Source of the DNA: Gemmatimonadaceae bacterium
Lineage (GTDB): Bacteria > Gemmatimonadota > Gemmatimonadetes > Gemmatimonadales > Gemmatimonadaceae
Direction of reading: 5' to 3'
Assembly: GCA_045804265.1 (NCBI GenBank)
Contig: JBJMNK010000116.1
Coordinates: 1,867-65,866 of the forward strand
DNA: 64,000 nt
In this document: in pieces, positions 11,261 to 63,858 of the stretch
Layout: every line of letters starts with the position of its first letter
How positions within the stretch are numbered: the first letter of the stretch is position 1
Notes under the pieces: model-generated
What the model was told of the DNA's origin: nothing
Database searches by the model: none
The model's input: only the letters and a program-made list of their open reading frames with translations
Translations under genes and position numbers: made by a program

Positions 11261-11552
11261 GGGGCGGCGCGATCCGAGCGCGACTCGCCCATGTATGCCG
11301 ACTCGCTGCCTCGGCTCGAGTCACGCCGGAAATCTCCGGTTTATGTGAGCCCCGTCACTGCAATCTGATGCGGCCTCGGCGGCGTAACTCGCCCGTAAGG
11401 CATCCGGCGACTGCGTCGGGGTCATTCGGGTCGTAGTCGTGACGATACGCTGACATCGGCACACGGTCTGCCCATAGAAGGAATTGGTGCGCGTGGTGGA
11501 CATGAGCGATCGCTCTCCCGCGCACCCGAAAAACCACAGGAGAAAAAGCACC

Positions 11553-12479
11553 ATGAAACGACATCTCTCGAATTCGATCGTCTGCGGCCTCGCGGCCGTG
11601 GTCACCCTGGGTCTCGCAGCGACTGCGAACGCCCAGAGTACCGATTCAACGAGAAGCACGACGTCCACGCGAAGCACCGCGACCAGCCGTTCGCGCGTGA
11701 CGTCGTCGCGGCGGATCCCGGTCCGCAAGGATGCGGCGAACAACAACACGACATCGAGCGAGTCGGCCGGTGCGGTGGCACCGACGCCTAACGCTGACTC
11801 GCTGGCGGCGGCGCAGCGGCAGGACTCGATCGCCAACGCCGAGCGGATGCGTCAGGACTCGATCGCGAACGCCGACCGGATGCGACAGGACTCGATCGCG
11901 GCAGTGCAGCGTGCGCGGCAGGACTCGATCGCGAACGCGGAGCGGATGCGCCAGGATTCGATCGCGCGCGCCGACTCGATCGCGCGGTGGAACCTCGCGC
12001 ACATGCGTCGCGCCGGCACGGGCCTGTACTTCCAGGTCGCGGGCGGCCCGAGCTACCCGAAGAGTGACTTCGACAACGCGTTCGATCGCGGCTTCAACGT
12101 GACCGGGTCGGTCGGCTACCACCCGATGACGTCACCCGTCGGTATTCGCTTCGATGTCGGCTACGATCGTTTCAACCCGACGACCTCGATCACCGGCACG
12201 AGTGACAAGCTGGCGCTCTGGTCCGGTCTAGCCGACGTGACGCTTCGCATCCCGAAGATGTGGGCGGTCTCGCCGTACCTCCTCGGCGGCGGCGGTGTCG
12301 CGCACTTCTCGGCGTACAACGGTGGGAACACGATGACGAAGGGCCAGTGGAACGCGGGCGGCGGCATCGGGTTCGGGCTCGGCAACGTGAAGCTGTTCGT
12401 CGAGTCGCGCTACATGCACGTCGCGACGCCGAACACGGCGACGAGCTACGTCCCGATCGTCCTCGGCATCTCGCTCTGA
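11553..12479 (+). CDS. Outer-membrane beta-barrel protein with Ser/Thr/Arg-rich spacer and five 11-aa repeats
   Basis: AGGAG lies upstream. Signal peptide MKRHLSNSIVCGLAAVVTLGLAATANA|QS. Repeats RQDSIANAERM x5. The C-terminal region has alternating beta-strand patterns (GLYFQVAGG...VGYDRF...GGGGVAHF...FVESRYMH...IVLGISL) typical of small OMP barrels. Confidence 0.7.
   Translation: MKRHLSNSIVCGLAAVVTLGLAATANAQSTDSTRSTTSTRSTATSRSRVTSSRRIPVRKDAANNNTTSSESAGAVAPTPNADSLAAAQRQDSIANAERMRQDSIANADRMRQDSIAAVQRARQDSIANAERMRQDSIARADSIARWNLAHMRRAGTGLYFQVAGGPSYPKSDFDNAFDRGFNVTGSVGYHPMTSPVGIRFDVGYDRFNPTTSITGTSDKLALWSGLADVTLRIPKMWAVSPYLLGGGGVAHFSAYNGGNTMTKGQWNAGGGIGFGLGNVKLFVESRYMHVATPNTATSYVPIVLGISL
11820..11987 (+). 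repeat. In-frame 33-nt tandem repeat, about 5 units
   Basis: Unit CAGGACTCGATCGCSAACGCSGASCGGATGCGN, repeated head-to-tail and encoding (R)QDSIANAERM. Confidence 0.8.
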
Positions 12480-13324
12480 TGCAGCACGGTTTGCGCACGG
12501 CGTTGGCCGCGCTCCTGGTGGTCGCCGGAACACCGGCGATCGCCTCGGCGCAGCGCCACGCCGCGCGCACGCCGCGCGCCGAGCGCGCGCGGCAGGTAAG
12601 GCTCGAACGCGGACCGGACACCGCGTACACGATCGAAAGCGCGCCCGAGCCCGACACGCTGCCGACTTTCCGTTCGCGCAGCGACAGCCTGATGTCGGCG
12701 CGAACGCTGCGCGCAGCGGTGCGCGATCGGGCGTTGCGGCTGGTGGTGTCGATCGACCAGAAGCAGCTCTGGGTGATCGAAGGGTCGGATACGCTGCACA
12801 CCGCGGCGGTCAACGTCGGGATGGGGCGGTTGCTCGAGTTCGGCGGGCGGCGCTGGACGTTCGCGACGCCGCGCGGCGTGCGGTCGATCATCGCCAAGTC
12901 GGCGGCGCCGAAGTGGCACCCGCCGGACTGGGCGTACGCGGAAGTCGCGCGCGAGTACGATCTCAAACTCGCGCATCTTCCGGCGAAGGGCTCGGTGACG
13001 CTGCGCGACGGCCGCAAGCTGCTCGTGCGCGACAGCCTCGTCGGGATCATGATGCCGGACGGCTTCGCGCCGCTGCCGGTGGACGAGCACATCGTATTCG
13101 ACTCGACGCTGTTCGTCCCGCCGTTAGGCACCGCCAACCGCGAGATCGATGGCGAGCTGGGGAACTACCGGCTCGACATGGGCAACGGGTACCTGTTGCA
13201 TGGAACGTCGAGCGGATCGACGCGGCGTGCGGCGACGACGCACGGCTGCGTGCGCCTCGGCGATGACGACCTGCAGTGGCTGTACGACTTCGTTCCCGTC
13301 GGGACGAAAGTCTACATCTACTAG
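12479..13324 (+). CDS. L,D-transpeptidase (YkuD domain)
   Basis: The ATG overlaps the upstream stop (ATGA at 12477-12481). Signal peptide MQHGLRTALAALLVVAGTPAIASA. Catalytic motif LHGTSSGSTRRAATTHGCVRL. Confidence 0.85.
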   Translation: MQHGLRTALAALLVVAGTPAIASAQRHAARTPRAERARQVRLERGPDTAYTIESAPEPDTLPTFRSRSDSLMSARTLRAAVRDRALRLVVSIDQKQLWVIEGSDTLHTAAVNVGMGRLLEFGGRRWTFATPRGVRSIIAKSAAPKWHPPDWAYAEVAREYDLKLAHLPAKGSVTLRDGRKLLVRDSLVGIMMPDGFAPLPVDEHIVFDSTLFVPPLGTANREIDGELGNYRLDMGNGYLLHGTSSGSTRRAATTHGCVRLGDDDLQWLYDFVPVGTKVYIY

Positions 13325-13331
13325 AGCAGTC

Positions 13332-13355
13332 GGGGCGCAGTCGCGCCTGCGCCCC
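13332..13355 (+). terminator. Short GC hairpin after the L,D-transpeptidase gene
   Basis: GGGGCGCAG-TCGCGC-CTGCGCCCC, 8 nt after the stop. Confidence 0.4.
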
Positions 13356-13572
13356 ACGCTGACGCCGCGCGTGACATGTCACACAACATCGCACCGGACT
13401 CGGCGCGGCCACATCGCGCCACGCGCGCAATCACGTCACCGTTAGGCGCCCAGTCGTGCGCGGTCCACGGTACGGGCACGGCGTCTGCCTTGCCATCTGT
13501 TTACCGCGCGTGGCGGCCACCATCGGTCCGCGACACCGGCGCGCAGCAACCACAGGAGCAGGAGGTAGCAGC

Positions 13573-14814
13573 ATGAGACGCCCATCGGCGATGACGATCG
13601 TCTGCGGCATTACGGCCGCGATCACACTCGGAATGGCGAGCACCGCGCGTGCGCAATCGGGCTCGACGAGCTCGACGTCCAGCACAAGCGCTGACACGAC
13701 CCACCGCGGGACGCGCGTGCGCAGCTCGACGAGGAAGGGGAAGTCGTCGAGCGGGTCGACCGCACGGAGATCATCACGCAGCTCTTCGGCGAGCGGGTCG
13801 AGCAGCTCGACGCGGCGAACGGGGTCGGCGCGTCGATCCTCGTCGAGCCGCACGTCGCCGCGTGACACGAGCATGAGCGGGAGCCGGAACGGGATGAGCG
13901 GCGGGAACAGCGGGTTGGTGAACGGCACGTCAAATGGCTCGATCGGGACGACCGGAGCGGGGAACGCGAACGGCTCCTACAATGGCTCGTACAACGGGTC
14001 GGCGGGCTACAACAATGGAGCGGTGAACGGCGCCAACGGCAGCCAGTATCCGTGCAACTACGGCCTGTCGAATGGCGGCGTGAATGGCACGATGAATGGC
14101 ACGATGAATGGCACGATGAATGGCACGATGAATGGCACGATGAACGGTACGACCAACGGCACGATTAATGGCACGGCGAATAGCTCGATGAATGGAACCG
14201 CGCCCGGCACGAACAACGGTTCAGTGAACGGCACGTCTAGCGCGACCACGAATGGGGGCGTTGCAGGAAACGCGTATCCGCAAGGGAATAACGCCGGCAC
14301 GAACGGCACCAATACCGCCAGCACGTATCCGGGTACCAGCGTCGCGGCGAACGGCGGCACGACGGGCGGCACGAGCAACAACGGCACGAACGTCGGCGTC
14401 AGCGGCGGCGTCAACAGCGGGATGAACAGCGGCGTGAACAACGGGACCACTGGCGGCGTGAACAACGGAACGAACGCTGGCGTCTACAACGGCACGAATG
14501 GTGGCGTGAACAACGGGACGGGAACAAACAGCGTGAACTGCACGCCTAACGGTTCGAACAGCGGCTACCAGGGTACGAACCAGGGGAACGGTCAGGGCAC
14601 GAACACCAATGGCTATCCCGGCACGGCGCCGCGCAATGGCACGAACGGGACGAACGGGACCAATGGTACGAACGGCACTCGCCAGCCGAATGGATCGGGC
14701 AGCGGGTCGACCGGAAGCTCCACCGGCACCACCGGTAACACCGGCGTCGGCACCGGTACCGGGACTGGCACCGGCAGTGGGAGCACCGGCACCGGCGGGC
14801 GGCCGCCGCGGTAG
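13573..14814 (+). CDS. Secreted low-complexity Asn/Gly/Thr-repeat protein with Ser/Arg-rich N-terminal spacer
   Basis: GGAGCAGGAGG lies upstream. Signal peptide MRRPSAMTIVCGITAAITLGMASTARA|QS. An S/T/R-rich segment follows, then about 300 aa dominated by NGT/NGS/NNG units (for example VNGTMNGTMNGTMNGTMNGTMNGTTNGTINGT and RNGTNGTNGTNGTNGT). The frame was chosen because it alone has an RBS and a signal peptide. Confidence 0.65.
   Translation: MRRPSAMTIVCGITAAITLGMASTARAQSGSTSSTSSTSADTTHRGTRVRSSTRKGKSSSGSTARRSSRSSSASGSSSSTRRTGSARRSSSSRTSPRDTSMSGSRNGMSGGNSGLVNGTSNGSIGTTGAGNANGSYNGSYNGSAGYNNGAVNGANGSQYPCNYGLSNGGVNGTMNGTMNGTMNGTMNGTMNGTTNGTINGTANSSMNGTAPGTNNGSVNGTSSATTNGGVAGNAYPQGNNAGTNGTNTASTYPGTSVAANGGTTGGTSNNGTNVGVSGGVNSGMNSGVNNGTTGGVNNGTNAGVYNGTNGGVNNGTGTNSVNCTPNGSNSGYQGTNQGNGQGTNTNGYPGTAPRNGTNGTNGTNGTNGTRQPNGSGSGSTGSSTGTTGNTGVGTGTGTGTGSGSTGTGGRPPR
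14080..14175 (+). repeat. In-frame 12-nt tandem repeat, 8 units (xNGT)
   Basis: GTGAATGGCACG, then ATGAATGGCACG x4, then ATGAACGGTACG, ACCAACGGCACG and ATTAATGGCACG. A second 9-nt repeat (AAYGGNACN x5) lies at 14635-14679. Confidence 0.8.
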
Positions 14815-14895
14815 ATCGCACTCGGCGATGGGCCGCACGAACGACGAACAAGCCGATCGGGCCGCTCACGCCTGACGACGAGAAGGAAGTGAACG

Positions 14896-14953
14896 GGAGG
14901 CACAGAGGGCACAGAGGAGTTCGATCAAAACCCTCTGTGCCCTCTGTGCCTCC
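14896..14953. repeat. Family A palindromic element (22-bp arms GGAGGCACAGAGGGCACAGAGG, 14-nt loop)
   Basis: Perfect inverted repeat between convergent genes. Near-identical copies lie at 40864-40924 and 63251-63313. Confidence 0.8.
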
Positions 14954-15133
14954 TGTGGTTGTGTCGTTGCAGTTCGATCTGCTTCGGTCGTCGCCGCTGC
15001 TTCACGGCGTTCGGTTGCGTGATACCAGGCTGACCAGCCGATCGCCCTTGGTCGCGCGACCAGCCGCAACCGCCCGACTCATGATCTGCTGACGGGGCGC
15101 TGCGCTCTGCCGCCATCCCGCGTGCCTCGCTGC

Positions 15134-16078
15134 CTAACGCTGTGGCGCCGGCGCGACCGGCAGCTGCTTCTCCAGCGTGACGTCGAGGGAACGAAGAAAC
15201 GACTCGACCGCGCTCGTGTACCCGGGATCGAGGCCAAGGCGGGCGTCGGCGTCGGCGTGGGATAGATCCTCGCGCAGCACCGACACGCGAACGCCGAGCG
15301 AGTCACCCTTCGCCGCAAATCGATCCGCCCGGTTACAACTCGCAGGGCGCCGGATCGAGCAGACGAGCAGGATCGGCCGCGCCGCGCCGGTCAGCGCGGC
15401 GATCGGCGACACGGAACGCCAGTACGCAGTGTCGCGCCCAAACGCACGATCGTACAAACGCACGTGCGGCGCGCGCATGATCTCCGGAATATCGAGCGCG
15501 CCACTCTCGATCGAGACGACTCCGAGCCATGGGATGATCGGCAGCTCGCGCGTCAGCGACGGCGATGTCGCCAGCAGCGTGACCAGGTGCGCGCCCGCGG
15601 AGTGCCCCATGAGGATGAATCTGGCCGCGCTTCCACCCCACTCGGTGACGCGCTGCTGCGCGACAGCGATCGCGCGCGCGACGTCCTTCGCCTGCTCGAG
15701 CGGGTCGGCCTCGGGCAGCATGCGATAGTTCGTCGAGATCACGATGAAGCCGCGGGGCACCCAGCGCGCGACCTTGTTCCCGGTCACGCCGCGCGCTGAC
15801 TTGTCGCCGTACGCCCACCCGCCGCCGTGCACCATGAAGATCACCGGCGCATCCTTCGCGTCAGGCGGCGCGTACACGTCGAAGCGCTGTCGGAGGTCAG
15901 GACCGAAGCGAACGTTGCGCACGATGCGCGGCGCGGCGGGCGCGGCCTGTCGCGACACAGCCTGTGGTTGCGCGGCCTGCAAGGAGTGGCCGAATGACGC
16001 GCGACACAGCCCGATGCTGACGAGCGCGATCGCGCCAAGGCGGACAGCGCCCGCGGCGCGCGATTGCAACGTTTCCAC
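15134..16078 (-). CDS. Alpha/beta hydrolase (esterase/lipase family), secreted
   Basis: Oxyanion motif VHGGGWAYGD, nucleophile elbow GHSAGAH, and an N-terminal signal-like segment. Confidence 0.85.
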   Translation of the reverse strand: METLQSRAAGAVRLGAIALVSIGLCRASFGHSLQAAQPQAVSRQAAPAAPRIVRNVRFGPDLRQRFDVYAPPDAKDAPVIFMVHGGGWAYGDKSARGVTGNKVARWVPRGFIVISTNYRMLPEADPLEQAKDVARAIAVAQQRVTEWGGSAARFILMGHSAGAHLVTLLATSPSLTRELPIIPWLGVVSIESGALDIPEIMRAPHVRLYDRAFGRDTAYWRSVSPIAALTGAARPILLVCSIRRPASCNRADRFAAKGDSLGVRVSVLREDLSHADADARLGLDPGYTSAVESFLRSLDVTLEKQLPVAPAPQR

Positions 16079-16173: not shown

Positions 16174-16683
16174 TCAGCGCTCGTCGGCGGTCGGCCCGTA
16201 CATCTGGGGCACCTTCTCGTCGAGCAGCCGCAGGTAGAGGCCGAGCTGCGCGCGATGGTGCACGATGTGGTTGAGCACCATCGACCGCAGCATCTGGTAG
16301 CGCGGCGCGCTCATCATCGTTACGCCCGTCTTCTTCAGCGTCCACGGAACGTTGAAATCGTCGTCCGACGCCGCGGCGAGCGCGGCTCGTCCTGCCGTCG
16401 CGTTGCGGTCGAATTCCGCGAGCAGTGTCGCGGTTGTCTCGATGCTGTAGCCCGGGAACCGCGGACCGCTCGCGGGCATGATGTCGAGCTCAGTGCGCTG
16501 CATCATCATCGGCGCCCAGCCGGGGAGGCGAGCGACGAGCTGCGCGAGATGCGCCAGCGGAAACGACTTCGCGTGGGGCTTCCACTCGCCGCGGCCGTCA
16601 GGCACCCGCTCGAGCACGCGGCGCGTGCTCGGAATCTCGGCGTCGTATTCGGGGAGCAGCAGTTCAGCGATGCGCATGATCAT
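16174..16683 (-). CDS. DinB family protein
   Basis: HLAQLVARL...LNHIVHHRAQLGLYLRL is the typical DinB/YfiT-like four-helix His pattern. The start was chosen at MIMRIAELL. Confidence 0.8.
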   Translation of the reverse strand: MIMRIAELLLPEYDAEIPSTRRVLERVPDGRGEWKPHAKSFPLAHLAQLVARLPGWAPMMMQRTELDIMPASGPRFPGYSIETTATLLAEFDRNATAGRAALAAASDDDFNVPWTLKKTGVTMMSAPRYQMLRSMVLNHIVHHRAQLGLYLRLLDEKVPQMYGPTADER

Positions 16684-16829
16684 CGACCTGGTGAATGGTG
16701 GCGCAGGAGCAGCAGCCACGCGGTGATCCTGCTTGGCGCGCACGGGAAGACGAAGCTACGACGCATGGAACTCCCGCGATAGCGAGGGTGCGGGCTGGCC
16801 GCGGAGGTGGATCGGGGATAAGCTGCGCC

Positions 16830-18275
16830 ATGAAACGTCCTGCCCTGCTCATCATGACGCTGGCCGCGGCGGGCTGCGCCACGACGGTGCCGCGCTCGAC
16901 GAGCGTGGCCGACGGTGCAGGCAGCAGTTCGGCGTCGATCCCCGCGCGATCGACCTACTGCAACCCACTCGATCTGGACTATCGCTTCGCGCTCGACACG
17001 CCGAGCCGCCGCGACGCGGCGGATCCGGTGATCGTGTTCTTCGACGACGAGTACTATCTCTTCGCGTCGAACAGCGGCGGGTACTGGCACTCGCGCGACA
17101 TGCGCGAATGGGCGCTCGTAACTCCAGACGGTCTCCCACGCATAGACGATGTACCGGCGATCCTCGTCCGCGATCGACGCGTCTACTACACGGCGAGCGA
17201 GTCGATGGCGCTCTACACGAGCGACGCGCCAGGGACGGGATCGTGGCGCAAGGTGGCTGATCTCGCGAGCTATGCCGAGCCTGCGCTGTTCGCCGACGAC
17301 GATGGGCGCGTGTACCTCTACTATCGCTCGGCCGCCGGCGACGCGATCTCGGCGGTGGAGCTCGATCCTCATGACGCGTTCAAGGTGCTCGGCGCGCCGC
17401 ACGACGTCGTGCGTATGCGCGCGGCGGCGCGGCCATGGATGACGAAGCACGACGGGCAGTACCATCTCGAGCTGTCGGGCGGTGTTGCGACTGCCGGCGG
17501 TGCGCGGGAACGCGCCTTCGTTTCAAGCGCGCCAACGGGCTCGTTCGCCGAGCTCCCGGGCGCTCGCGTGGCGTCCGGGCGCGAGGATCTCCCTCCCGCG
17601 GGACGCTCGTCGACGTTCCGCGATCGCGGCGGCCATCTCTGGCGCGCGACGACGATGCCTCTGTCGGCAGGGCACGCCCCCGAGCGACGGTTAGGCATCC
17701 TCCCCGCCGGCTTCGACAGCAGCGGGACGCTGCGGGTAGACGCGTCGCACGAGGATTATCCGCGACTCCTGCCTGACGTCGCGGACGCGCAGCTCCATCA
17801 TGGCCTGACGGGTTGGACGCTCCTGTCGGCGAGAAGGATCGCGACTGCATCCTCGAGCCTCGCGGACCATCTGCCTGCGCTCGCGTTCGATGAGGATGCG
17901 AGCACCTGGTGGAGCGCGGCGAGCGGTGGCGTCGGCGAGTGGCTCCGCGTGGACCTCGGATCGATCGTCCGGGTCACCGCCATCCAGATCAACTTCGCCG
18001 AGCAGGACACTCACACCCTCGGTCGTGACGACGACAGCTACCAGCAGTACATCGTCGAATCCTCGATCGACGGCAGTCGCTGGACGACGCGGCTCGACGA
18101 GAGCGCGGCGAAGCGCGACACCCCGCATCATTACGTGCAGCTCGACACGGCGCGGAACGCGCGCTACGTGAGGATCACCAACGTTCACGCGGCCTCGGGA
18201 GGGACGTTCGCCCTGCGCGGGCTGCGGATCTTCGGCGTCGGATCAGCGCTGCCGCAACGTCCATCATCAAGATGA
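16830..18275 (+). CDS. Glycoside hydrolase family 43 protein with C-terminal F5/8 type C (discoidin) domain, lipoprotein
   Basis: Lipobox MKRPALLIMTLAAAGC. GH43-like region DPVIVFFDDEYYLFASNSGGYWHS. C-terminal region WWSAASGGVGEWLRVDLGSIVRVTAIQINF...YVRITNV. Confidence 0.85.
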   Translation: MKRPALLIMTLAAAGCATTVPRSTSVADGAGSSSASIPARSTYCNPLDLDYRFALDTPSRRDAADPVIVFFDDEYYLFASNSGGYWHSRDMREWALVTPDGLPRIDDVPAILVRDRRVYYTASESMALYTSDAPGTGSWRKVADLASYAEPALFADDDGRVYLYYRSAAGDAISAVELDPHDAFKVLGAPHDVVRMRAAARPWMTKHDGQYHLELSGGVATAGGARERAFVSSAPTGSFAELPGARVASGREDLPPAGRSSTFRDRGGHLWRATTMPLSAGHAPERRLGILPAGFDSSGTLRVDASHEDYPRLLPDVADAQLHHGLTGWTLLSARRIATASSSLADHLPALAFDEDASTWWSAASGGVGEWLRVDLGSIVRVTAIQINFAEQDTHTLGRDDDSYQQYIVESSIDGSRWTTRLDESAAKRDTPHHYVQLDTARNARYVRITNVHAASGGTFALRGLRIFGVGSALPQRPSSR

Positions 18276-18859
18276 AGAATCTCTGGAGCTCCACCGCCCG
18301 CGACGACTGGCAAGGCGCTCTGGGTCGCTACGCCGCCGTCGTCGCGGCGCAGGGGGTCGGCCCGCTTCCGGCGCTCGACTCATGGTATCGCGACAAGTTG
18401 CCGGGGCTGATCGGGGCGCGCCGGCGCCCGCACGTGACGCACCCCGAGCTGGTCCGGGTGACCGAGTGGAAGATGGCGCGCGGTGTATGGCGAGCGCGGA
18501 ACCTGGCGCTGGTGCGGGGCAACGATCCGGGGCTCGTGGAAGAGACGAGCGCCGAAGCGTTAGGCGCTATCCCCGATGAGAGCGCGCCGATCTCGACGCT
18601 CGCCGAGCTGGCCGGCGTCGGGCCGGCGACGGCGTCGGCCGTCGTGGCGGCGGCCCGTCCGGATCTCTATCCGTTCTTCGACGAGCTGGTCGGGGCGCAG
18701 GTCCCAGGGCTCGGCAAGCTGGCCTTCTCGCTCGGCTACTACAAGCGCTATGCGGCGGCGCTGCGCGAGCGGGCGCGGGAGCTGGGCGAGGCGTGGACCC
18801 CCGTCATGGTCGAGCGCGCGTTATGGGCGAACGTCGGAGGAAAGAAGGGGGCGAAGTGA
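18272..18859 (+). CDS. Hypothetical protein with helix-hairpin-helix-like segment
   Basis: ATGA overlap with the upstream stop. LAELAGVGPATASAVVAA resembles an HhH motif. I cannot name a family with confidence. Confidence 0.6.
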   Translation: MKNLWSSTARDDWQGALGRYAAVVAAQGVGPLPALDSWYRDKLPGLIGARRRPHVTHPELVRVTEWKMARGVWRARNLALVRGNDPGLVEETSAEALGAIPDESAPISTLAELAGVGPATASAVVAAARPDLYPFFDELVGAQVPGLGKLAFSLGYYKRYAAALRERARELGEAWTPVMVERALWANVGGKKGAK

Positions 18860-19714
18860 GGTGACGCGGACCCAATCGACGAGCACATCGCCCTGCCCGT
18901 TCCTGATGCGGTCGACCGTTTCCCGCGGAAGGCCGGGGTAGGGAAGTCGCACGCCGTTCGTCTTCAGCGGGTAGGCACCGCCTAACGCGAGGTTGAGGAT
19001 GAGGAACTTCGGATTGTCGTAGGCCCAGCGCCCATAGTTCTCGATCATCGGACGTGTCGCCCGATAGACGAGCGTCTGGTCGATGCGGAAGGTGATGGTG
19101 TCGGGGCGCCAGTCCACGGTGTAGACGTGCCAGTGCGTGACGTCGTCGCCAGCGGGGAGATAGAGGCGATTGAAGAGCGGCGTGTCGCCCGAATAGCCCG
19201 GCCCGTGAAGCGCGACGCTCGCCCAGTCGGGCTCACCGACGTTCTCCATCACGTCGATCTCCCCGGTCGCCGGCCAGTCGCCGGCGCCGAGCAGCCAGAA
19301 CGCCGGCCAGAAGCCACTACCCGCGGGCAGCTTCATTCGCGCCGAGGCGACGCCGTACGTGAAGTCGAAGTGATGGTGCGAGTCGAGGTGGGCCGAGACG
19401 AAGTCGTGGCGATTGCCGTCGGCCGAGACATACCCGGGCGCGTAGCGCGGCCGGATGACGAGCGCGCCGTTCGACGCGCCACGCGCCTCGGCGCCACGCG
19501 CGATGAACAGCGTCGGTGCGCTATCGACGTACGCCTGCTGCTCGTCGTTGTACGCGGCGCCGCGGACTTCGACGTTCCACTTCGTGCGGTCGAGCGCCGG
19601 GCCGGCGAAGTCGTCGAAGAAGACGACGTCGGACGGCGCAGGCGCGGATGCGGGGCGTCGGGTGCATCCCGCGGCGGCGATCACAACCAATGCAACGAAT
19701 CCCGTTAGGCGCAT
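18821..19714 (-). CDS. Glycoside hydrolase family 16 (beta-glucanase/laminarinase-like) lipoprotein
   Basis: Lipobox MRLTGFVALVVIAAAGC. GH16 catalytic motif GEIDVMENVG (ExDxxE), plus WPAFWLLG. Confidence 0.85.
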   Translation of the reverse strand: MRLTGFVALVVIAAAGCTRRPASAPAPSDVVFFDDFAGPALDRTKWNVEVRGAAYNDEQQAYVDSAPTLFIARGAEARGASNGALVIRPRYAPGYVSADGNRHDFVSAHLDSHHHFDFTYGVASARMKLPAGSGFWPAFWLLGAGDWPATGEIDVMENVGEPDWASVALHGPGYSGDTPLFNRLYLPAGDDVTHWHVYTVDWRPDTITFRIDQTLVYRATRPMIENYGRWAYDNPKFLILNLALGGAYPLKTNGVRLPYPGLPRETVDRIRNGQGDVLVDWVRVTSLRPLLSSDVRP

Positions 19715-19730
19715 CGAACCTCCTGACTGG

Positions 19731-19837
19731 GCTGTAAGCGATAAGCTATAAGCAGTCAGCGGATCGCGTCGCGGACCGCGTCACCGCAGGCCGGTTGCGC
19801 CGTCCGCTGACAGCTCATGGCTTACAGCTTATCGCGG
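19731..19837. repeat. Long imperfect palindrome with arms made of tandem xxxTAAG octamers
   Basis: GCTGTAAGCGATAAGCTATAAGCAGTCAGCGGA...TCCGCTGACAGCTCATGGCTTACAGCTTATCGCGG, lying between two same-strand genes. Confidence 0.6.
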
Positions 19838-30370: not shown

Positions 30371-30494
30371 CTGGGGCGCGGCGGGAGCGTTAGGCAGGGC
30401 GGGTCTCGTGTGACGAACGGAGGAGGGCGGGGCGCCCCTAATTCTTACTGTTTCCTGGCTTGCGCGATACCCCTGTTTTCGCGTACGTGACGGA

Positions 30495-32945
30495 ATGCAA
30501 ATCCGCTTCGTGACCCTCGCGCTCGTGTGCACGATTGCAATCGGCAGTCGCGCCGCGGCAGAGTGCCCCGCCAGGGACCCGGCCGGCGCGTGTCTCGTGG
30601 CGATTGCCCCGACCGCGAGCGATGCCAGCGACGTCTATGTCGGGCGCGCGGGCCAGACGAGGGTAAGGCCGCCGCGGCTCGAGGAGAGCGGCTCGAGCGT
30701 GGATGGGGTGCTCGACGACGCACAGTGGCAGCACGCGGCGCTGCTCACGGGGTTTTCGGAGTTCTCGCCGCTCGACGGGGTCGCGGCCGAGGATTCGAGC
30801 GAGGTGCTCGTCTGGTACTCGGCGACGGCGATCCATTTCGGCATCCGCGCGTTCGAGCCGCACGGCGCGGTGCGGGCGACGCTGGCGAACCGCGACAACA
30901 TCGCGAGCGACGACAACATCCAGCTGCTGCTCGGGACGTTCAACGACGGGCGGCAGGCGATGGTGTTCGGCGTGAACCCGCTCGGCGTGCAGATGGACGG
31001 CGTGCTGGTCGAGACGAACCAGTCGCACGGGAACGACTTCAACGCCAAGGCGACGTCACGCGACCAGGCGGACCTCAGCCCGGACTTCGTCTTCGAGTCG
31101 AAGGGGCGCCTAACGGCGTACGGCTACGAGGTCGAGGTGCGCATCCCGTTCAAGAGCCTCAAGTACCCCAACGCGGCCGAGCAGGCGTGGGGACTCAACA
31201 TCGTGCGGATCGTCCAGCACTCCGGACACGAGGATTCGTGGGCGCCGGCGAAGCGCGCGTCGCTCTCGTTCCTCGGCCAGTCGGGGACCGTCGAGGGGAT
31301 GACCGACCTGCGGCGCGGGCTTGTAGTGGACGTGACGCCGGAGATCACGCAGCGCACGACGGGTGCACCGCTGACGGCGCCTGGTGCCGGTGGCTGGGAC
31401 TATTCGGCCGCTAATCCGCAGATCGGGGGCACCGTTCGCTGGGGGGTCACGAACAACATGACGCTCAACGCGACGGCGAATCCCGATTTCTCGCAGGTGG
31501 AGTCGGATGCCGGGCAGGTGGTGTTCGACCCGCGCGCAGCGTTGTACTTCACCGAGAAGCGGCCGTTCTTCCTCGACGGGAGCGAGCAGTTCTCGACACC
31601 GCACAACCTGGTCTACACGCGGCGGATCGTGCAGCCGGTCGCGGCGGCGAAGCTGACCGGGAAGATGTCGGGATTGAACCTCGCGCTGCTGTCGGCGGTG
31701 GACCGTCGTACCGCGTCGCTGACCGGTGATGGGCATCCCGTGTTCAACATCGTGCGGCTGCAGCGCGATCTCGGCGGGCAGTCGCGGGTCGGCATGACGT
31801 ACACCGATCGCATCGACGGCTCGGGGTACAACCGCGTCGCCGACGCCGACGGACGCTACGTGTTCCGCGGGATCTACAGCGTGCAGGGGCAATATGCGCG
31901 CAGCTTCACGAAGGATGTCGCGAGCGCGCCGATGGTGGCGGCGCCGTTATGGAACACGGTGGTGAGTCGCAACGGGAAGGCGTTCGGGCTGCGCTACTCG
32001 CTCGACGGGGTGAGCGACCGGTTCCGCACGCGCAGCGGCTTCATCTCGCGCGGCGGGATCGTCACACTCGGACTCGATCATCGCTTCACCTGGACCGCGC
32101 CGGCGGGTGCGTGGCTCGAGACGTTCAGCTTCAGCCCGGTGGTGAACACGACGTGGCGCTACGAGCGGTTCGTGCAGCAGAAGGACGCGATCGAGAAGCT
32201 TCTGCACTTCAACCTCTCGGCCACTGCGCGCGGCGGATGGAACGCGGGGTTCGGGCTGCTGACCGAGACGTTCGGCTTCGACCCCGATCTCTACGCGAAC
32301 TATCGGATCCTGCGCGGGCCGGGCGACACGATCGCGTTTCGCGGCGTGGGGCGAATCCCGAACCAGGATTGGGTCTTCTCGGCGAGCACTCCGGAGTGGC
32401 AGAAGCTGTCGGCGAACGCGCTCTATCTCTGGGGGCGGGACGAGAACTTCTTCGAGTGGCAGTCGGCGAACATCGTCTTCGCGAGCTACGGACTCACGTT
32501 GCGGCCGAACCAGAAGCTGCGTGTCGATGGGAGCTACCAGCTGCAGACGTACCGGCGGCGCCCGGAAGGCACGATGGTCGGCGAGTTCAAGATTCCGCGG
32601 CTCAAGCTCGAGTACCAGCTCCAGCGCGCGATCCTGCTGCGTCTCGTCGGCGAGTATGACTCGGGCGCGCAGGCGGCGCTGGTCGACGCCGGGCGAACCG
32701 GGCTTCCGCTGCTGGTGAACAACGCGCTCGCGCCGGCGCAGACCGACAGCCGCTTCCGCGGCGACTTTCTCTTCTCGTACACACCGGTGCCCGGCACGGT
32801 GTTCTTCGTCGGCTATGGCGCAGGGTACGAGGACGTGCGCGACGTACCGAAGCAGTTCAGCTTCCCGCGATCGTTAGGCCTGGCGGGCTACGCGCGTGAC
32901 GGCGACGCACTGTTCATCAAGGCGAGCTACCTGATACGGATGTAG
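30495..32945 (+). CDS. DUF5916/CBM9-like domain outer-membrane protein
   Basis: Signal peptide, then VDGVLDDAQWQHAA...WYSATAIHFGIRAFE...DNIQLLLGTFNDGRQAMVFGVNPLG, then a long beta-rich C-terminus ending in F/Y-rich strands. It is a paralogue of 53286..56003. Confidence 0.8.
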   Translation: MQIRFVTLALVCTIAIGSRAAAECPARDPAGACLVAIAPTASDASDVYVGRAGQTRVRPPRLEESGSSVDGVLDDAQWQHAALLTGFSEFSPLDGVAAEDSSEVLVWYSATAIHFGIRAFEPHGAVRATLANRDNIASDDNIQLLLGTFNDGRQAMVFGVNPLGVQMDGVLVETNQSHGNDFNAKATSRDQADLSPDFVFESKGRLTAYGYEVEVRIPFKSLKYPNAAEQAWGLNIVRIVQHSGHEDSWAPAKRASLSFLGQSGTVEGMTDLRRGLVVDVTPEITQRTTGAPLTAPGAGGWDYSAANPQIGGTVRWGVTNNMTLNATANPDFSQVESDAGQVVFDPRAALYFTEKRPFFLDGSEQFSTPHNLVYTRRIVQPVAAAKLTGKMSGLNLALLSAVDRRTASLTGDGHPVFNIVRLQRDLGGQSRVGMTYTDRIDGSGYNRVADADGRYVFRGIYSVQGQYARSFTKDVASAPMVAAPLWNTVVSRNGKAFGLRYSLDGVSDRFRTRSGFISRGGIVTLGLDHRFTWTAPAGAWLETFSFSPVVNTTWRYERFVQQKDAIEKLLHFNLSATARGGWNAGFGLLTETFGFDPDLYANYRILRGPGDTIAFRGVGRIPNQDWVFSASTPEWQKLSANALYLWGRDENFFEWQSANIVFASYGLTLRPNQKLRVDGSYQLQTYRRRPEGTMVGEFKIPRLKLEYQLQRAILLRLVGEYDSGAQAALVDAGRTGLPLLVNNALAPAQTDSRFRGDFLFSYTPVPGTVFFVGYGAGYEDVRDVPKQFSFPRSLGLAGYARDGDALFIKASYLIRM

Positions 32946-33623: not shown

Positions 33624-35075
33624 TCAGGGCTTGCCACCTGGCGGCTGGGTGCAGCTGGCGCCGGTCGTGTTCTCGAGCGACGGACGCGCCGGCTCGGCGG
33701 GCACATTGACGTCGATCGTGACGTCGGTCGGCTTTCCCGGCTCGATCACGACCGGCTTGAGGATCTTGTTCTTGAGGAACCAGATCTTGTCTCCGCACAT
33801 GAAGTCGGTGATCTCGACCTCGTACTTCCCCGGAGGACGGACGACGGCCGGGCCCCAGCCATCGGGATTCGCGCCGGTGCGCAGCGTCCCGTAGAGCCAG
33901 TGGCCGTCAGGGAGGTGCAGCGAGTACTTCGTCGGGAAGTAGTTGTTCGAGGCGATGTCGTAGATGCGGACACGGAGTGGCGCCGCGCCCGGTGCGGTGC
34001 TCGTCGCCGGCGCGGAGGTCGCGGGCGCGGCCGCGCTGGTGCTCGCCGGGGCTGCGGCGGCCAGCGAGGCGGCGGGCGCCGCACGAGTGGCCGCAGCGTT
34101 AGGCGGACCGGCCACCGCGTCAGGCGCCGCGTTGGTCACGCCAGGGGCGCTGGTCGTCGCGGCGGGCGGAGCCGAGGCAGCGTTAGGCACCGTGCGCGCG
34201 GCGACGCGGATCGCCGCCGCCGAGTCCTTCTTCGCCTGCGCGAGCGCCACTGCCTGTGCCTTCGCCGAGTCGCGCGCCTGCTGCCTGGCCAGCGCGTCCG
34301 CCTTCGCCTTTGCCAGCGTCGCCGCGCGCGCAACCACTCGCGCACTGTCGGCCGCTTTCGCCTTGGCGATCGCCTCGGCGCGCGCCTGTGCGCGAAGCTG
34401 CGCCTTCGTCAGCGGCTTCGGTGGTGGCGCGGCGGCGACGGCGACGGGGGCAGGGCGTCCATCGGGAATCGCCGCGACATTCACGGGGTCCTTCGAGATG
34501 CGTCGCAGGACGAAGTGTCCTTCGCCGTCGGTGCCGCGGCGGTCCCATCTCCCTTTGGCGGAGTCGCCGAAGAAACGTCCCCACATCGAGATGCCGCCGT
34601 GATCGATCCGCGGAATGAAGTCGATGTTCACCGAGTCGCCGCGTACGTTGCCGCTGATCTCCGTCACCATCGACGTGTCGCCCGGCCCGAACGCGGTGAC
34701 GTTTGCCGGTCGCAGGAACGAGCGGCCGAAGAACGATTGCAGGTCGAGGTTGTGGCGGCCGAAGCGATCGCGCGGGTTCCACCACGCAGTGTTGCTGAAG
34801 GCGATTTCGCCGTTGATCTGGCCGGCCATCGGCTCGGTTCGCGCGCTCGGCGTGTCGAGATAGAGCTCGAGTCTCCAGCGTCCCTCGAGCGCCTTGCTCG
34901 GTCCGTCCGCGCCTGGCTGCTGCGCGGCAGCGGGTGCGGTCGCGGCGGCGAGCGCGATCGTCAGGCAGCGCAGCGCGCGCCAGGTCGAGTGGGCCCGCGC
35001 ACCGTACGAACGTGCATCCAATCCCGAAGGCAGCTGCATGCTTTCACGCTGACATCCCATCCGCGTCCTCACCAT
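33624..35075 (-). CDS. Hypothetical secreted protein with Ala/Lys-rich linker and C-terminal beta-sandwich-like domain
   Basis: Signal-like region LTIALAAATAPAAAQQ. Central AKAKA/AQA low-complexity region. C-terminal region LRVRIYDIASNNYFP...GKYEVEITDF. The start is uncertain (35075 or 35039). Confidence 0.55.
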   Translation of the reverse strand: MVRTRMGCQRESMQLPSGLDARSYGARAHSTWRALRCLTIALAAATAPAAAQQPGADGPSKALEGRWRLELYLDTPSARTEPMAGQINGEIAFSNTAWWNPRDRFGRHNLDLQSFFGRSFLRPANVTAFGPGDTSMVTEISGNVRGDSVNIDFIPRIDHGGISMWGRFFGDSAKGRWDRRGTDGEGHFVLRRISKDPVNVAAIPDGRPAPVAVAAAPPPKPLTKAQLRAQARAEAIAKAKAADSARVVARAATLAKAKADALARQQARDSAKAQAVALAQAKKDSAAAIRVAARTVPNAASAPPAATTSAPGVTNAAPDAVAGPPNAAATRAAPAASLAAAAPASTSAAAPATSAPATSTAPGAAPLRVRIYDIASNNYFPTKYSLHLPDGHWLYGTLRTGANPDGWGPAVVRPPGKYEVEITDFMCGDKIWFLKNKILKPVVIEPGKPTDVTIDVNVPAEPARPSLENTTGASCTQPPGGKP

Positions 35076-35222
35076 TCGAAAAAGACCGGAGCCCAGGCCA
35101 GGAGCATCGCCCTCCCCGGATACGGGTGGGCGGCTCGCAGTGCTGACGTCGCTAGTGCACAGGACACGCCAGCGGGGGCCGCCGGCGTCCGGCGTTCGCC
35201 AGGCCGCGCCCGCTTGGTGGAC

Positions 35223-40113: not shown

Positions 40114-40716
40114 TCAGTGCGGCTTGGTCGCTCCTTTCCGCTCCGGCGAGGCGATCGCCTCGAGGAGGAGGCGCTCGAGCTCTTCGTCCTTCGTCTCGGC
40201 CAATCGCGCGGGCGCGCAGGGGAGGCGGCGACGCGCGGGGCGGTCGAGCGACTCGAAGCAGATCCACCCGCGCTGGAATTCGCCGAGGTAATGCTTCGGA
40301 CGCCCGGTGCGCGAGAGCCCGGGGATGACTGGCCACGCCCGCCACTGCTCGCCTCTGCTGTCGCGGAACTCGCGGACAGTGTGTTCACCGAGCTGCTCGC
40401 GGGCATCGTCGAGGTCGGCGAGAAGCGTCGTTTCACGGGCGTCGGCGGAATCCGAGGGTGGTGGGGACTGGTGGGCCTTCTCCTTCTCCTGCTCCTTCGC
40501 CTGATCCTGAGCGATGTGGCGCCGAAGCGAGATCGCTTCACCGGCAGCTACCGCCGCGGCGAGCAGCGAGTCCTCGATCTCGCGGATCTCCGCGCTCGTC
40601 TTGGTGGCGACGCCACCAGCTTCAGCAGCGCAGGCATCGTGCAGCCGGCGCGAGAGCTCGTCTTCCGCTTCCTGAAGAATCGGCTTGAGCTGGTCGTTCT
40701 TCGCGGGTTCGGTCAT
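40114..40716 (-). CDS. Hypothetical protein
   Basis: Open frame with normal codon bias: MTEPAKNDQLKPILQEAEDELSRRLHD...WRAWPVIPG...GWICFESLDRPARRRL. No family name recalled. Confidence 0.5.
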   Translation of the reverse strand: MTEPAKNDQLKPILQEAEDELSRRLHDACAAEAGGVATKTSAEIREIEDSLLAAAVAAGEAISLRRHIAQDQAKEQEKEKAHQSPPPSDSADARETTLLADLDDAREQLGEHTVREFRDSRGEQWRAWPVIPGLSRTGRPKHYLGEFQRGWICFESLDRPARRRLPCAPARLAETKDEELERLLLEAIASPERKGATKPH

Positions 40717-40863
40717 GCGATCCTCAGTACGCGCTCGATTGCAGTGCCCGGCCATTCCGACCAGAAAGAAGTGCAGGGGTCGAGCCAGAATTTGGGGTCA
40801 GGTCACGTATACACCGTGCCTCGCCAAACCAGTCCTGCCCTCCTGATCAACGGATGAATTGAA

Positions 40864-40924
40864 CAGGAGGCACAGAGAGCACAGAGAGGTTTGATCAATC
40901 CCTCTGTGCCCTCTGTGCCTCCTG
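40864..40924. repeat. Family A palindromic element
   Basis: CAGGAGGCACAGAGAGCACAGAGAGG-TTTGATCAATC-CCTCTGTGCCCTCTGTGCCTCCTG. Confidence 0.8.
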
Positions 40925-41174
40925 TGGATTTGCCGTTGAAGTTGCAGGTGCTGTAAGTGATTCAGCTTCTGAGTGCCCTCGCTTCCTCCCGTGATCTGCC
41001 CTTCTCCCAACGTCGCTCTCGATGACTCCGCGCGGCGACGAGGAACCGGCGAGCCGGTGAAGCGGACGACCGGTCATCGTCAGGCCGGCGGACCGGAGAC
41101 GAGTTCGACAGGACGGTTCAGAGCGTACGGTCGCGCGACGGCTGCGATGGCGCGAACCCTCCGCATTTCGTGGA

Positions 41175-46198: not shown

Positions 46199-47614
46199 AT
46201 GAACGCGCCAACCGTTCCCCCCATGGAAGACGCGTCACCGGAAAAACCACAGCTCGTCCGCCGATTCGGGTTGCTCCCGGCGACGGCGCTGAACATGACG
46301 AACATGATCGGCGTCGGGCCGTTCATCACGATCCCGCTGCTGATGTCCGCGTTAGGCGGCCCCCAGGCGATGCTCGGCTGGATCGTCGCGCTGGTGATCG
46401 TGATCTGCGACGGGATGGTGTGGAGCGAGCTCGGTGCGGCGATGCCGGGCTCGGGGGGATCGTTCCACTATCTCCGCGAGGCGTTCGGCCGCGAGCGCCT
46501 CGGGCGGCTGATGGCGTTCCTCTTCGTCTGGCAGTTCGTGCTCAGCGGCCCGCTCGAGATCGCGTCCGGTTACATCGGCTTCGCCGACTACGCGAGCTAC
46601 ATCTGGAAGGGGCTCACGCGGCCGGGGGTGATCGCGCTCATAACGGTGGTCGGCGTGGTGAACATCGCGCTGCTCTACCGGCGCATCCATTCGATCGCGA
46701 AGATCACCGTCTCGCTCTGGATCGGGACGCTGATCACCGTGCTCGCCGTGATCGTCACCGGCGCGATGCACTTCGACCCGCACGTCGCCTTCGACTTTCC
46801 CCCCGGCGCGTTCAGCTTCTCGCTCGGCTTCTTCCTCGGGCTCGGCGCCGCGTCGCGCATCGGGATCTACGACTACCTCGGCTACTACGACGTCTGCTAC
46901 ATCGGTGACGAAGTGCGCGACCCGGGCCGCGTGATTCCGCGCTCGATCCTGATCAGCACCGCGGCGGTCGCCGTGATCTACTTCGGCATCAACCTGTCGG
47001 TCGTCGGAGTAGTACCGTGGCGCGAGTTCGTGCCGGCGGCGGCGCACGCCGAATCGAGCTTCATCGTCTCGATCTTCATGGAGAAGATCTATGGCGGGAC
47101 GGTGGCGACGGTGTTCACGCTGCTCGTCCTCTGGACGGCGTTCGGCTCGGCGTTCGCGTTGCTGCTCGGCTACTCACGAATACCCTACGCGGCGGCGGAG
47201 AGCGGCTACTTCTTCCGGGCCTTCGCGCGGCTCCATCCAACGAAGGAATTTCCCTACATCTCGCTGCTGGTCCTTGGGGTGCTGTCGATCATCGCGGGTT
47301 TCTTCTCGTTGGGCACGGTGATCGATGCGTTGATCGTGACGCGAATACTGGTGCAGTTCATGGGACAGATCGTCGGGCTGATCGTGCTGCGAAAGCGGGC
47401 GCCGACGATGAACCGTCCCTACCGCATGTGGCTCTATCCAGTGCCGGCGCTGGTCGCGCTGCTCGGCTGGATCTTCGTCTTCGCCACGACGCAGGCCGAG
47501 GTCATCCTGTTCGGGGTCGGAGTTCTCGCGTTAGGCGGTGTGGCGTTCATGCTCTGGTCCTGGAACACGAAACGGTGGCCATTCGGCCTCGGGGGGAGGG
47601 AAGTCACTACATGA
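46199..47614 (+). CDS. APC superfamily amino acid permease
   Basis: A protein of about 12 TM segments. LNMTNMIGVGPFITIP and WSELGAAMPGSGGSFHYLREAFG motifs. Confidence 0.85.
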   Translation: MNAPTVPPMEDASPEKPQLVRRFGLLPATALNMTNMIGVGPFITIPLLMSALGGPQAMLGWIVALVIVICDGMVWSELGAAMPGSGGSFHYLREAFGRERLGRLMAFLFVWQFVLSGPLEIASGYIGFADYASYIWKGLTRPGVIALITVVGVVNIALLYRRIHSIAKITVSLWIGTLITVLAVIVTGAMHFDPHVAFDFPPGAFSFSLGFFLGLGAASRIGIYDYLGYYDVCYIGDEVRDPGRVIPRSILISTAAVAVIYFGINLSVVGVVPWREFVPAAAHAESSFIVSIFMEKIYGGTVATVFTLLVLWTAFGSAFALLLGYSRIPYAAAESGYFFRAFARLHPTKEFPYISLLVLGVLSIIAGFFSLGTVIDALIVTRILVQFMGQIVGLIVLRKRAPTMNRPYRMWLYPVPALVALLGWIFVFATTQAEVILFGVGVLALGGVAFMLWSWNTKRWPFGLGGREVTT

Positions 47615-50320: not shown

Positions 50321-50670
50321 TTGCTGCTTGGTTCGTTCGAGCCGTTGGCGTTCTGGTATGTCGGCCTTGGTCCTCAGCATTCGACCGGCGTACAGTCTGC
50401 GGGGGAGGCACCGAGGCACCGAGGGCACCGAGGACTGCACGCCAGACCAGTATCGTTGCGCTACTGCCAAACGACTTGGGGCAAGCAGGTGAGATGGTCT
50501 CGCCCCGCTTGCCCCCAAGCTGTTCGGGGCTGGCGCGAACGGCTCAGCCCCTGCGGGGCTGTCCTCGGTGTCTCGGTGTCTTGCAAGAATAGACTGTCAC
50601 GCAGATGGGATGCTGAGGACAACGGCCGACATACGACGACGCCAGCGGCTCGAACGAATCGATCAGCAAA
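50321..50670. repeat. About 350-bp element with ~110-bp imperfect terminal inverted repeats ending in tandem GGCACCGAG 9-mers
   Basis: The left arm is TTCGTTCGAGCCGTTGGCG...GTATGTCGGCC...TCCTCAGCAT...GGCACCGAGGCACCGAGGGCACCGAGG. It pairs with the right arm CCTCGGTGTCTCGGTGTC...ATGCTGAGGA...GGCCGACATAC...CGGCTCGAACGAA. A central hairpin CTTGGGGCAAGC...GCTTGCCCCCAAG lies at 50475-50519. Confidence 0.65.
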
Positions 50671-53184: not shown

Positions 53185-53285
53185 ACTAACGGTGCGCGGC
53201 AGGGACTCCTGTTGACCGGCGCGGGCCAAGTGTCAACGCCGCGTCAACCCTTCGACCGCACCGCCTGTCAAACACCGTCGGCCCG

Positions 53286-63157: not shown

Positions 63158-63313
63158 GAAGCAACGGCAACAGCATTTCCACAGGAGCCACAGAGGGCGC
63201 AGACCGTCTGGATGAAGTGGCACGACTGAAGCAACGGCAACAGCATTTCCACAGGAGCCACAGAGGGCACAGAGGGGTCTGATCAAACCCTCTGTGCCCT
63301 CTGTGGCTCCTGT
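63158..63313. repeat. Family A palindromic element with a 70-bp-period direct duplication of its left flank and arm
   Basis: GAAGCAACGGCAACAGCATTTCCACAGGAGCCACAGAGGGC occurs at 63158-63199 and again at 63228-63269. The second copy continues into the hairpin ACAGGAGCCACAGAGGGCACAGAGGGG-TCTGATCAAA-CCCTCTGTGCCCTCTGTGGCTCCTGT. Confidence 0.75.
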
Positions 63314-63858
63314 TCAATTCGTGCTCGTTGTCTGTAGTGGGAGGAACGGCTGCTTCGATCTGAGGCTCATCGGTGCCTCGGGCGCACTGGTTGCTCGTCT
63401 TGACCCGCCCTCGCGCCTCCTCACCTCCCGAAACGCGAAACGTCAGCCCCACATCGACAGTCTATCGAATGTGTCCGCCTCTTCGAGCCGGATTCGCCGA
63501 CACGGATCGACGGCTCCCCGGGTCGGGACGCCGAACATCAGACTCCTCCCAACCTCACCCCACATGCGCGAGCTCACCCCCATCTACTCCGCCGCAACGC
63601 CGGCTCGGCTGCGCTCGACGCTCGTGGGATTCCTCGCGCTGATGCTCGCGCTCGGCGTCGTCGCATCGATCGCCAGCGTCTGACGCTCGCCGCGCGGCCC
63701 GCGTGTCCCGGGTCGCCGCACGTTAGGCAGCCGATGACCGGAAAATGTGAGCTGCGCCCACTTGTGAAGACAGTGGCCGCCTGGCGATCATGATCACTCT
63801 CGTCGCGGAAGGCGCGCGAGCTCACCAGAGTGGAGATGCGGGAATGGAACGGCGACTG

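Follow-up and report, generated by a model that had tools for sequence, protein, structure and literature searches.

In Antarctic notothenioids the antifreeze glycoprotein (AFGP) gene received its secretory signal from a trypsinogen-like protease and its body from amplification of a 9-nt Thr-Ala-Ala unit (PMC6410882). Repeat proteins confined to narrow taxa are already known, and so is gene birth that is partly de novo. A comparable arrangement was found in a soil Gemmatimonadaceae bacterium, in a 64,000-nucleotide stretch of contig JBJMNK010000116.1 (assembly GCA_045804265.1), which is referred to here as the window and has a GC content of 67.6%. The window carries an uninterrupted open reading frame (ORF) of 413 amino acids on the plus strand (13573-14814), and most of its product consists of Asn-Gly-Thr-rich repeats. 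As judged from its sequence, the ORF is on balance best read as a gene of recent origin and narrow taxonomic range, whose product would be a hydrophilic and disordered protein exported to the envelope or matrix.

The marks of AFGP-type partial de novo birth, namely a donated signal peptide, an amplified body and absence from outgroups, were found in the ORF. As in the AFGP gene, the export signal comes from a pre-existing and functionally unrelated gene, here still a near neighbour, and the body appears to derive from in-frame, microsatellite-like amplification of a 9-12-nt coding unit. Here too the predicted product is a low-complexity secreted polymer. Unlike the AFGP gene the ORF is bacterial and intronless, and its unit is NGT/TMNG and not TAA. 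The likeness is one of mode of gene origin only and implies neither homology nor antifreeze function.

The ORF lies in a 1.8-kb segment between the stop codons of a YkuD L,D-transpeptidase gene and an alpha/beta-hydrolase gene, which are convergent (Table 1). The gap between these two genes was just 6-75 bp in six related loci from metagenome-assembled genomes (L001-L006). Six Logan contigs (L022-L027) had the same gene order with the insert absent. The closest relative found, L021, encoded a YkuD protein with 87% identity and shared 84% nucleotide identity over 11434-13322. Its alignment ended at window position 13322 and restarted at 15129, with 21 bp between these points in L021. Because of this break and the short spacers in the other relatives the segment is read as a clean lineage-specific insertion. 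It was absent from every related Gemmatimonadaceae locus retrieved (L001-L006, L021 and L022-L027). A mobile-element origin was considered and rejected, as there was no phage match and the plasmid matches were trivial, G/T-rich ones only. No tRNA was predicted in the window, and Rfam gave no family beyond generic hairpin matches.

Table 1. Positions of the ORF parts, repeat arrays and neighbouring features in the window.
Feature	Position	Strand	Basis
Parent outer membrane protein (OMP)-like gene	11553-12479	+	Signal peptide, TSxRRIPVRKD motif, RQDSIANAERM repeats, C-terminal beta-barrel-like region
YkuD L,D-transpeptidase gene	12479-13324	+	PF03734, E 6e-20; ATG overlaps the OMP-like TGA (TGATG)
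Lineage-specific 1.8-kb insertion	13325-15133		Locus comparison
Partial, diverged copy of the start of the OMP-like gene (source 11489-11699)	13506-13719	+	blastn, tblastn, alignments
Shine-Dalgarno-like AGGAGG	13560-13565	+	7 nt before ATG, read off the sequence
Predicted signal peptide, residues 1-27	13573-13653	+	Predicted cleavage ARA/QS; n/h/c layout by eye
Basic Ser/Thr/Arg-rich segment, residues 28-100	13654-13872	+	Composition
Asn/Gly/Thr/Ser-rich low-complexity core, residues 101-375	13873-14697	+	Composition and motif counts
12-nt array, T-M-N-G units	14081-14195	+	Tandem Repeats Finder, 9.6 copies, 84% matches
24/48-nt array, N-G-G-V-N-N-G-T units	14403-14520	+	Tandem Repeats Finder, 4.9 copies, 76% matches
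9-nt array, G-T-N units	14641-14675	+	Tandem Repeats Finder, 3.9 copies, 80% matches in DNA
Gly/Thr/Ser tail, residues 376-413, and stop codon	14698-14814	+	Sequence, GSGSTG...GTGTGTGTG...GGRPPR
6/9-nt repeats in the tail	14720-14776	+	Tandem Repeats Finder
Long perfect-stem hairpin, dispersed palindromic repeat element	14886-14962		Inverted repeat of 32+32 nt, downstream of the ORF stop
Alpha/beta-hydrolase gene, convergent, downstream	15134-16078	Opposite to ORF	Pfam

The start of the ORF, with the region just before it, is a partial and by now diverged copy of the corresponding part of the OMP-like gene, which lies two genes upstream. The copy takes in the ribosome-binding region and the signal peptide and runs into the Ser/Thr/Arg-rich segment (first ~55-98 residues). 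Identity was 64% over 225 nt by blastn (E 4.5e-11) and 37% over 98 aa by tblastn (E 9e-13), and similarity was over by about residue 98. The aligned signal peptides share the pattern IVCG[IL].A..TLG.A.TA.AQS and are 54% identical over 28 aa; that of the OMP-like protein is itself conserved in the relatives. The first part of the basic segment, RVRSSTRKGKSS in the ORF, aligned to RVTSSRRIPVRKD of the OMP-like family. Duplication of the whole OMP-like and YkuD unit, which is of similar length to the insertion, was rejected because only the 5' ~215 nt match and the rest of the insertion resembles neither gene. The ORF shares its strand and locus with the OMP-like gene in addition to these 5' parts, but it does not keep the conserved form of the RRIPVRKD motif and has neither RQDSIANAERM repeats nor a C-terminal beta-barrel. 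For these reasons its product is read as no functional member of the OMP_b-brl family (PF13505).

The signal peptide, MRRPSAMTIVCGITAAITLGMASTARA, is followed by QS. It has an A-x-A cleavage site (A-R-A), an n-region with two Arg and a 16-residue hydrophobic core, and is probably of the Sec type as read by eye. A lipoprotein modified at Cys11 was rejected, there being no lipobox and too short an h-region ahead of the Cys. The basic segment contains 41% Ser, 18% Arg and 16% Thr, with a net charge of about +13 and a grand average of hydropathy (GRAVY) of -1.44. The core is 27% Gly, 23% Asn, 15% Thr and 9% Ser with 3.6% Tyr, and is almost uncharged. The protein ends in GGRPPR with no terminal aromatic residue and no beta-barrel. 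Composition analysis of the product gave 8% hydrophobic residues and a GRAVY of -0.95, with two Asp, no Glu and seven Gln. Asn makes up 15% of the product compared to 2.8% in the conserved genes of the window.

These results agree with much of a preliminary description of this DNA. Its ribosome-binding site and signal peptide are supported by the AGGAGG 7 nt before the ATG and by an n/h/c layout with A-x-A that is homologous to that of the conserved neighbour. Its basic Ser/Thr/Arg stretch was recovered with the composition given above. Its estimate of at least about 20 NGT triplets and more than 30 N-x-S/T sequons also held, the counts being 22 NGT, 8 NGS and 32 N-x-S/T, with all 32 sequons inside residues 101-375. 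The part said to be almost entirely N, G, T and S was overstated. These residues do dominate the ~310 residues after the basic segment but amount to only ~74%, the remainder being A, V, M, Y, P and Q, which are also the minor residues of the core. The 30 NG[ST] motifs exceed an effect of composition, since residue shuffles of the same segment gave 4.8 ± 2.1.

The body of the ORF is built from several tandem arrays, called with Tandem Repeats Finder. Every period was a multiple of 3 and there were essentially no indels. Perfect repeats had been described at 14080-14175 (12 nt) and 14635-14679 (9 nt). The 12-nt array exists but is perfect over 14081-14144 alone (64 nt, 5.3 copies), with 84% matches across the wider array. 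In the 9-nt array only the peptide repeats perfectly, because its core units differ at synonymous sites, and DNA matches reach just 80%. Slippage appears to have been recent, given that five 12-mers are identical and AAT accounts for 32% of Asn codons in the ORF against 9% genome-wide. Among repeat units 20 of the 45 changed codons were synonymous, where 24-26% was expected under unbiased or transition-biased mutation (p 0.002-0.007), in what is a rough consensus-based count. This excess among the older units suggests some peptide-level constraint. The Asn-rich tract in GC-rich DNA had been taken as a sign of selection; the identical 12-mers and the AAT excess point to slippage instead, while the synonymous excess keeps part of that argument.

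The frame of the ORF contained no stops across 1.24 kb compared to 4-19 in the other five frames. The GC content at third codon positions (GC3) was 0.82, with 0.81-0.84 in each of four quarters, and the conserved window genes had 0.8-0.92. Synonymous codon choice for Gly, Thr and Ser was nearly identical to that of the genome, and the mean ln relative synonymous codon usage (RSCU) of 0.25 was the best of the six frames. An ORF spanning the whole region was rare in shuffled sequence (9 of 1000 dinucleotide shuffles). Together with this rarity, the periods in multiples of 3 and the copied ribosome-binding site and signal peptide, these values favour this frame as the coding frame, as first proposed. 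The ORF is probably read in this frame as a real, exported, repeat-rich protein. Judged by its codons it would be a translated gene under some peptide-level constraint, less codon-adapted and probably young. Opposite-strand ORFs of 135-205 aa are present in the region. The antisense 205-aa ORF was rejected as coding because its third positions fall on the low-GC phase (0.44). The antisense 135-aa ORF, which is Pro/Val/Phe-rich, shares the GC3 phase and was rejected as its frame has 7 stops and no start signals. A promoter and terminator scan found no promoter-like site, and terminator-like sites were at chance level only and on the minus strand.

No true homolog of the product was found and the gene is an orphan of no known family, as far as sequence comparison goes. 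The single match from a word-indexed search of 5.8 billion proteins was compositional and eukaryotic-looking, with (M/K)NGT repeats. All 93 matches from a full HMMER scan of 1.84 billion representatives were weak; nearly all lay on the repeat core (~residues 130-260) and none reached the signal peptide. The nine that were inspected came from unrelated or dubious proteins and had periodic xxG[ST]/xxDG sequences. Pfam, NCBIfam and PDB sequence searches gave nothing specific, with no Pfam domain in the product and only a Plasmodium Asn-rich insert from the PDB. One contig end (L008, 65% GC) carries NGT[MIT] repeats and was rejected as a homolog, its neighbours reading, on inspection of their ORFs, as unrelated phage-like genes of a kind typical of alphaproteobacteria.

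A scan of metagenome contigs found only MNGT-coding 12-nt microsatellites in unrelated genes (among them SMC-like, XerD-like and eukaryotic-looking ones). The 12-nt M-N-G-T unit was expanded inside SMC-like and XerD-like ORFs of L017 (~1500-1600) and L018 (~1940-2030). Three short high-GC contigs, L014-L016, also carried this expansion. The occurrences suggest that ATGAACGGCACC/G is a recurrent slippage-prone unit, expanded independently in unrelated bacterial genes.

AlphaFold2 was run on the product with no alignment. The mean predicted local distance difference test score (pLDDT) was 35 and the predicted template modelling score was 0.25, with a core pLDDT of ~30-60. The model had no strands of 3 residues or more and no secondary structure beyond isolated beta bridges. 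The result is weakly consistent with disorder.

The gene may have formed in three steps. A 1.8-kb segment would first have entered the tiny spacer between two convergent conserved genes. The diverged OMP-like copy at its 5' end would have supplied the ribosome-binding region, the Sec signal peptide and the first residues rich in Ser, Thr and Arg. The remaining coding sequence would then have grown as 6-, 9-, 12- and 24-nt units, which encode NGT, TMNG, GGVNNGTN and GT/GS, slipped and expanded in frame. The arrays would differ in age, one being still perfect and others having decayed mainly at synonymous sites. The product is predicted to be exported by Sec, cleaved after ARA27 and intrinsically disordered, a very hydrophilic and strongly basic polymer whose mature chain begins with a +13 Ser/Arg head and continues as an uncharged Asn/Gly/Thr/Ser/Tyr body. 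It was found to contain no enzymatic domain, no beta-barrel and nothing that would anchor it in a membrane. It may act as a hydrated, sticky component of the envelope or matrix. The cationic head could attach to soil surfaces or to anionic polymers of the envelope or matrix, while the prion-like or hydrophilin-like body could hold water or self-associate.

Several points weigh against this account, and some of them would also follow if the ORF were a non-functional or barely functional proto-gene. The OMP-like 5' copy would in that case be pseudogenised, the microsatellite growth would have stayed in frame by chance, and the product would be absent or useless. Long ORFs are common in DNA of 67% GC, and a region-spanning ORF of equal length arose in 9 of 1000 dinucleotide shuffles. 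The mean ln RSCU lies ~2.6 standard deviations below that of the conserved genes (0.43 ± 0.07), and this score and the AAT excess fit a proto-gene, as do the perfect repeats, a sign of very recent slippage. The conserved parent motif TSxRRIPVRKD is degraded to SSTRKGKSS in the copy. The insert is missing from all relatives compared; these are at most 87% identical in YkuD, which bounds the age of the insertion only loosely. As no ortholog was found, the gene cannot be called conserved. A low pLDDT says little about disorder when, as here, the model was made without an alignment. The envelope or matrix function, although the most likely one, is inferred from composition alone. A proto-gene is nevertheless considered unlikely, if the most serious of the alternatives. 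It fits poorly with the canonical AGGAGG kept at ideal spacing and the intact signal peptide, and with several independent arrays and non-repeat linkers that hold one frame over 1.24 kb with no stops. The excess of synonymous differences between units also argues against it, as does the match of GC3 and of Gly, Thr and Ser codon choice to the genome in the ORF frame only.

Orphan low-complexity ORFs are common objects in metagenome-derived genomes. If expressed, the young gene favoured here would be an unusually clean bacterial case of the birth of a new secreted-protein gene, with exact breakpoints, a donor two genes away and arrays of different ages. The locus would then make gene birth, repeat-length variation and the function of Asn-rich disordered envelope proteins open to experiment in a poorly studied soil phylum.

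Sequon-rich proteins can be targets of N-glycosylation. Most bacterial oligosaccharyltransferases (OSTs), such as the classical PglB, require D/E at position -2, while some Desulfovibrio PglBs are relaxed and some bacterial OSTs accept a minimal N-X-T (PMC4894442). One native glycosylation site of Desulfovibrio gigas is TANGT (PMC4894442). N-glycosyltransferases are reported to hyperglycosylate sequon-rich adhesins (bioRxiv 10.1101/2020.09.10.281741). The known substrates of the cytoplasmic enzymes are two-partner or autotransporter adhesins, and the transferase gene often lies beside that of its substrate.

The preliminary description had proposed that the product could be a dedicated glycan scaffold. 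In that case most NG[ST] Asn would be glycosylated by a periplasmic PglB-type OST or a cytoplasmic HMW1C-like N-glycosyltransferase, giving a mucin-like glycopolymer. Like the substrates of PglB-, HMW1- and EtpA-type systems the product is predicted to be exported, flexible and sequon-rich, with 32 N-x-S/T sequons, 30 of them NG[ST]. All 32 would be available before export to a cytoplasmic enzyme, and the predicted periplasmic export and flexible-region sequons fit a PglB substrate. The 39 Asn-Gly dipeptides of the protein would, in a flexible chain, deamidate fast unless protected, and an unmodified protein would therefore be chemically short-lived; this was counted for the scaffold.

The product differs from such substrates in lacking an acidic residue at -2, an adhesin domain and a linked transferase. 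None of the 32 sequons had D/E at -2, where T, G, S, V, L, N, P or Q was found. The two-partner secretion, autotransporter and beta-helix domains of known N-glycosyltransferase substrates are missing. A Pfam scan of the target and 34 other window ORFs found no OST/STT3, GT41 or other glycosyltransferase and no TpsB, in line with the earlier statement that the window contains no glycosyltransferase. No enzyme partner is conserved alongside the gene, itself an orphan, and the literature searched gave no paper linking Gemmatimonadetes with PglB. The proposal drew on the sequon count, and counting sequons cannot discriminate glycosylation because an NG[ST] repeat necessarily consists of them. That N-x-S/T sites are so dense simply reflects the NG[ST] unit being repeated. 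Nothing found indicates a dedicated N-glycan scaffold, which is regarded as improbable.

A combined reading would keep the envelope or matrix polymer, born in the AFGP manner, as a working protein. Its 30 NG[ST] sites would be hyper-N-glycosylated by an undescribed relaxed-specificity system of this phylum or would serve as a deamidation timer. In the timer version, deamidation of Asn-Gly, the most labile site for this reaction, would turn the secreted protein from strongly cationic to anionic over time. This reading is very doubtful. The 30 NG[ST] sites in one exported chain would make a sensitive natural reporter of N-glycosylation activity in Gemmatimonadaceae.

Bacterial proteins with prion-like domains are reported to be enriched at the cell periphery (PMC4606120). 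The product resembles these domains, and hydrophilin- or late embryogenesis abundant-type proteins, in its core Asn and Gly contents, its few charged or hydrophobic residues, its predicted disorder and its predicted peripheral location. It differs in that the low-complexity part is nearly the whole mature protein and not an appendage to a folded domain. Q/N-rich domains also differ, as the product is Asn-only with just seven Gln. A functional amyloid or prion-like matrix protein was weighed on this basis, in which the uncharged N/G/S/T/Y core would form extracellular cross-beta or gel-like assemblies of the curli or FUS-like kind. The N, G, S+T (25%) and Y contents of the core with near-zero charge match the described prion-like signature (N/Q plus G, S and Y). 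The product also has four x-Y-P-x motifs, spaced roughly 20-100 residues apart. The high Gly and Thr contents and the Pro may disfavour ordered amyloid, however, and the AlphaFold2 model has only scattered, low-confidence beta bridges. Neither curli-like repeats nor secretion partners were found by Pfam in the window ORFs scanned. Such an amyloid is thought quite improbable.

An ice- or mineral-binding protein had also been suggested. The form considered was an ice-, mineral- or surface-binding beta-solenoid like the Asn-rich plant ice-recrystallisation inhibitors. The 8-residue GGVNNGTN units are compositionally reminiscent of the Lolium-type xxNxVxG repeats, and Gemmatimonadaceae are common in dry or cold soils. 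The repeat periods of 2, 3, 4 and 8 residues include no regular long-period repeat suited to a solenoid. AlphaFold2 predicted no fold (pLDDT 35), and the Plasmodium insert was all that the PDB search returned, with no related solved structure. Ice or mineral binding is without support because no fold is predicted, and a solenoid is judged extremely improbable.

The OMP-like gene and the YkuD gene were adjacent in every Gemmatimonadaceae relative compared (L001-L007 and L021-L027), and OMP-like orthologs were present in all of these. The OMP-like gene scored 25 bits against PF13505, under the cut-off of 28.7. Its TSxRRIPVRKD motif is invariant-looking and its RQDSIANAERM repeats are coiled-coil-like. 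As a speculation from sequence, the pair is a candidate operon for an outer-membrane-to-peptidoglycan tether. The RQDSIANAERM-type repeats (33 nt; window 11800-12000) yield off-diagonal blastn matches and vary in number and sequence in the orthologs (L001-L007, L021 and L022). As these differ between relatives, the OMP-like gene too evolves by in-frame repeat change.

The hairpin downstream of the ORF had a folding energy of -58 kcal/mol (z = -8.9) and may serve as a transcript-end structure for the ORF. It belongs to a palindromic element of ~75 bp (...GGCACAGAGGGCACAGAGG-loop-CCTCTGTGCCCTCTGTGCC...) with at least 3 copies, apparently outside called ORFs. Further copies lie at 40856-40952 and 63202-63372, with a half-site-like match at 50415-50433. 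The arm motif occurred 7 times against 0.03 expected. The element was absent from the 20 related loci compared and looks like a repetitive extragenic palindromic or miniature inverted-repeat transposable element.

A DinB-family gene (16174-16743, minus strand) lies between the hydrolase gene and a GH43 gene, with a counterpart only in L006. It was missing at that spot in L022-L026 and in L001 and L003. As the counterpart is limited to L006, this is a second presence/absence polymorphism in the neighbourhood. Two high-GC3 ORFs without a Pfam domain were present on the minus strand. One encodes 531 aa with a long Ala/Pro-rich low-complexity middle (33624-35219) and the other 226 aa (40114-40794). 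Genes for a GH43 protein with an F5/8 type C domain, a GH16 protein and a GH2 exo-beta-D-glucosaminidase-like protein were found at 16695-19777 and 46909-50274. Two large DUF5916/CBM9 proteins are encoded at 30414-32942 and 53190-56000. By its predicted domains the region is rich in polysaccharide-degrading, not glycan-building, functions.

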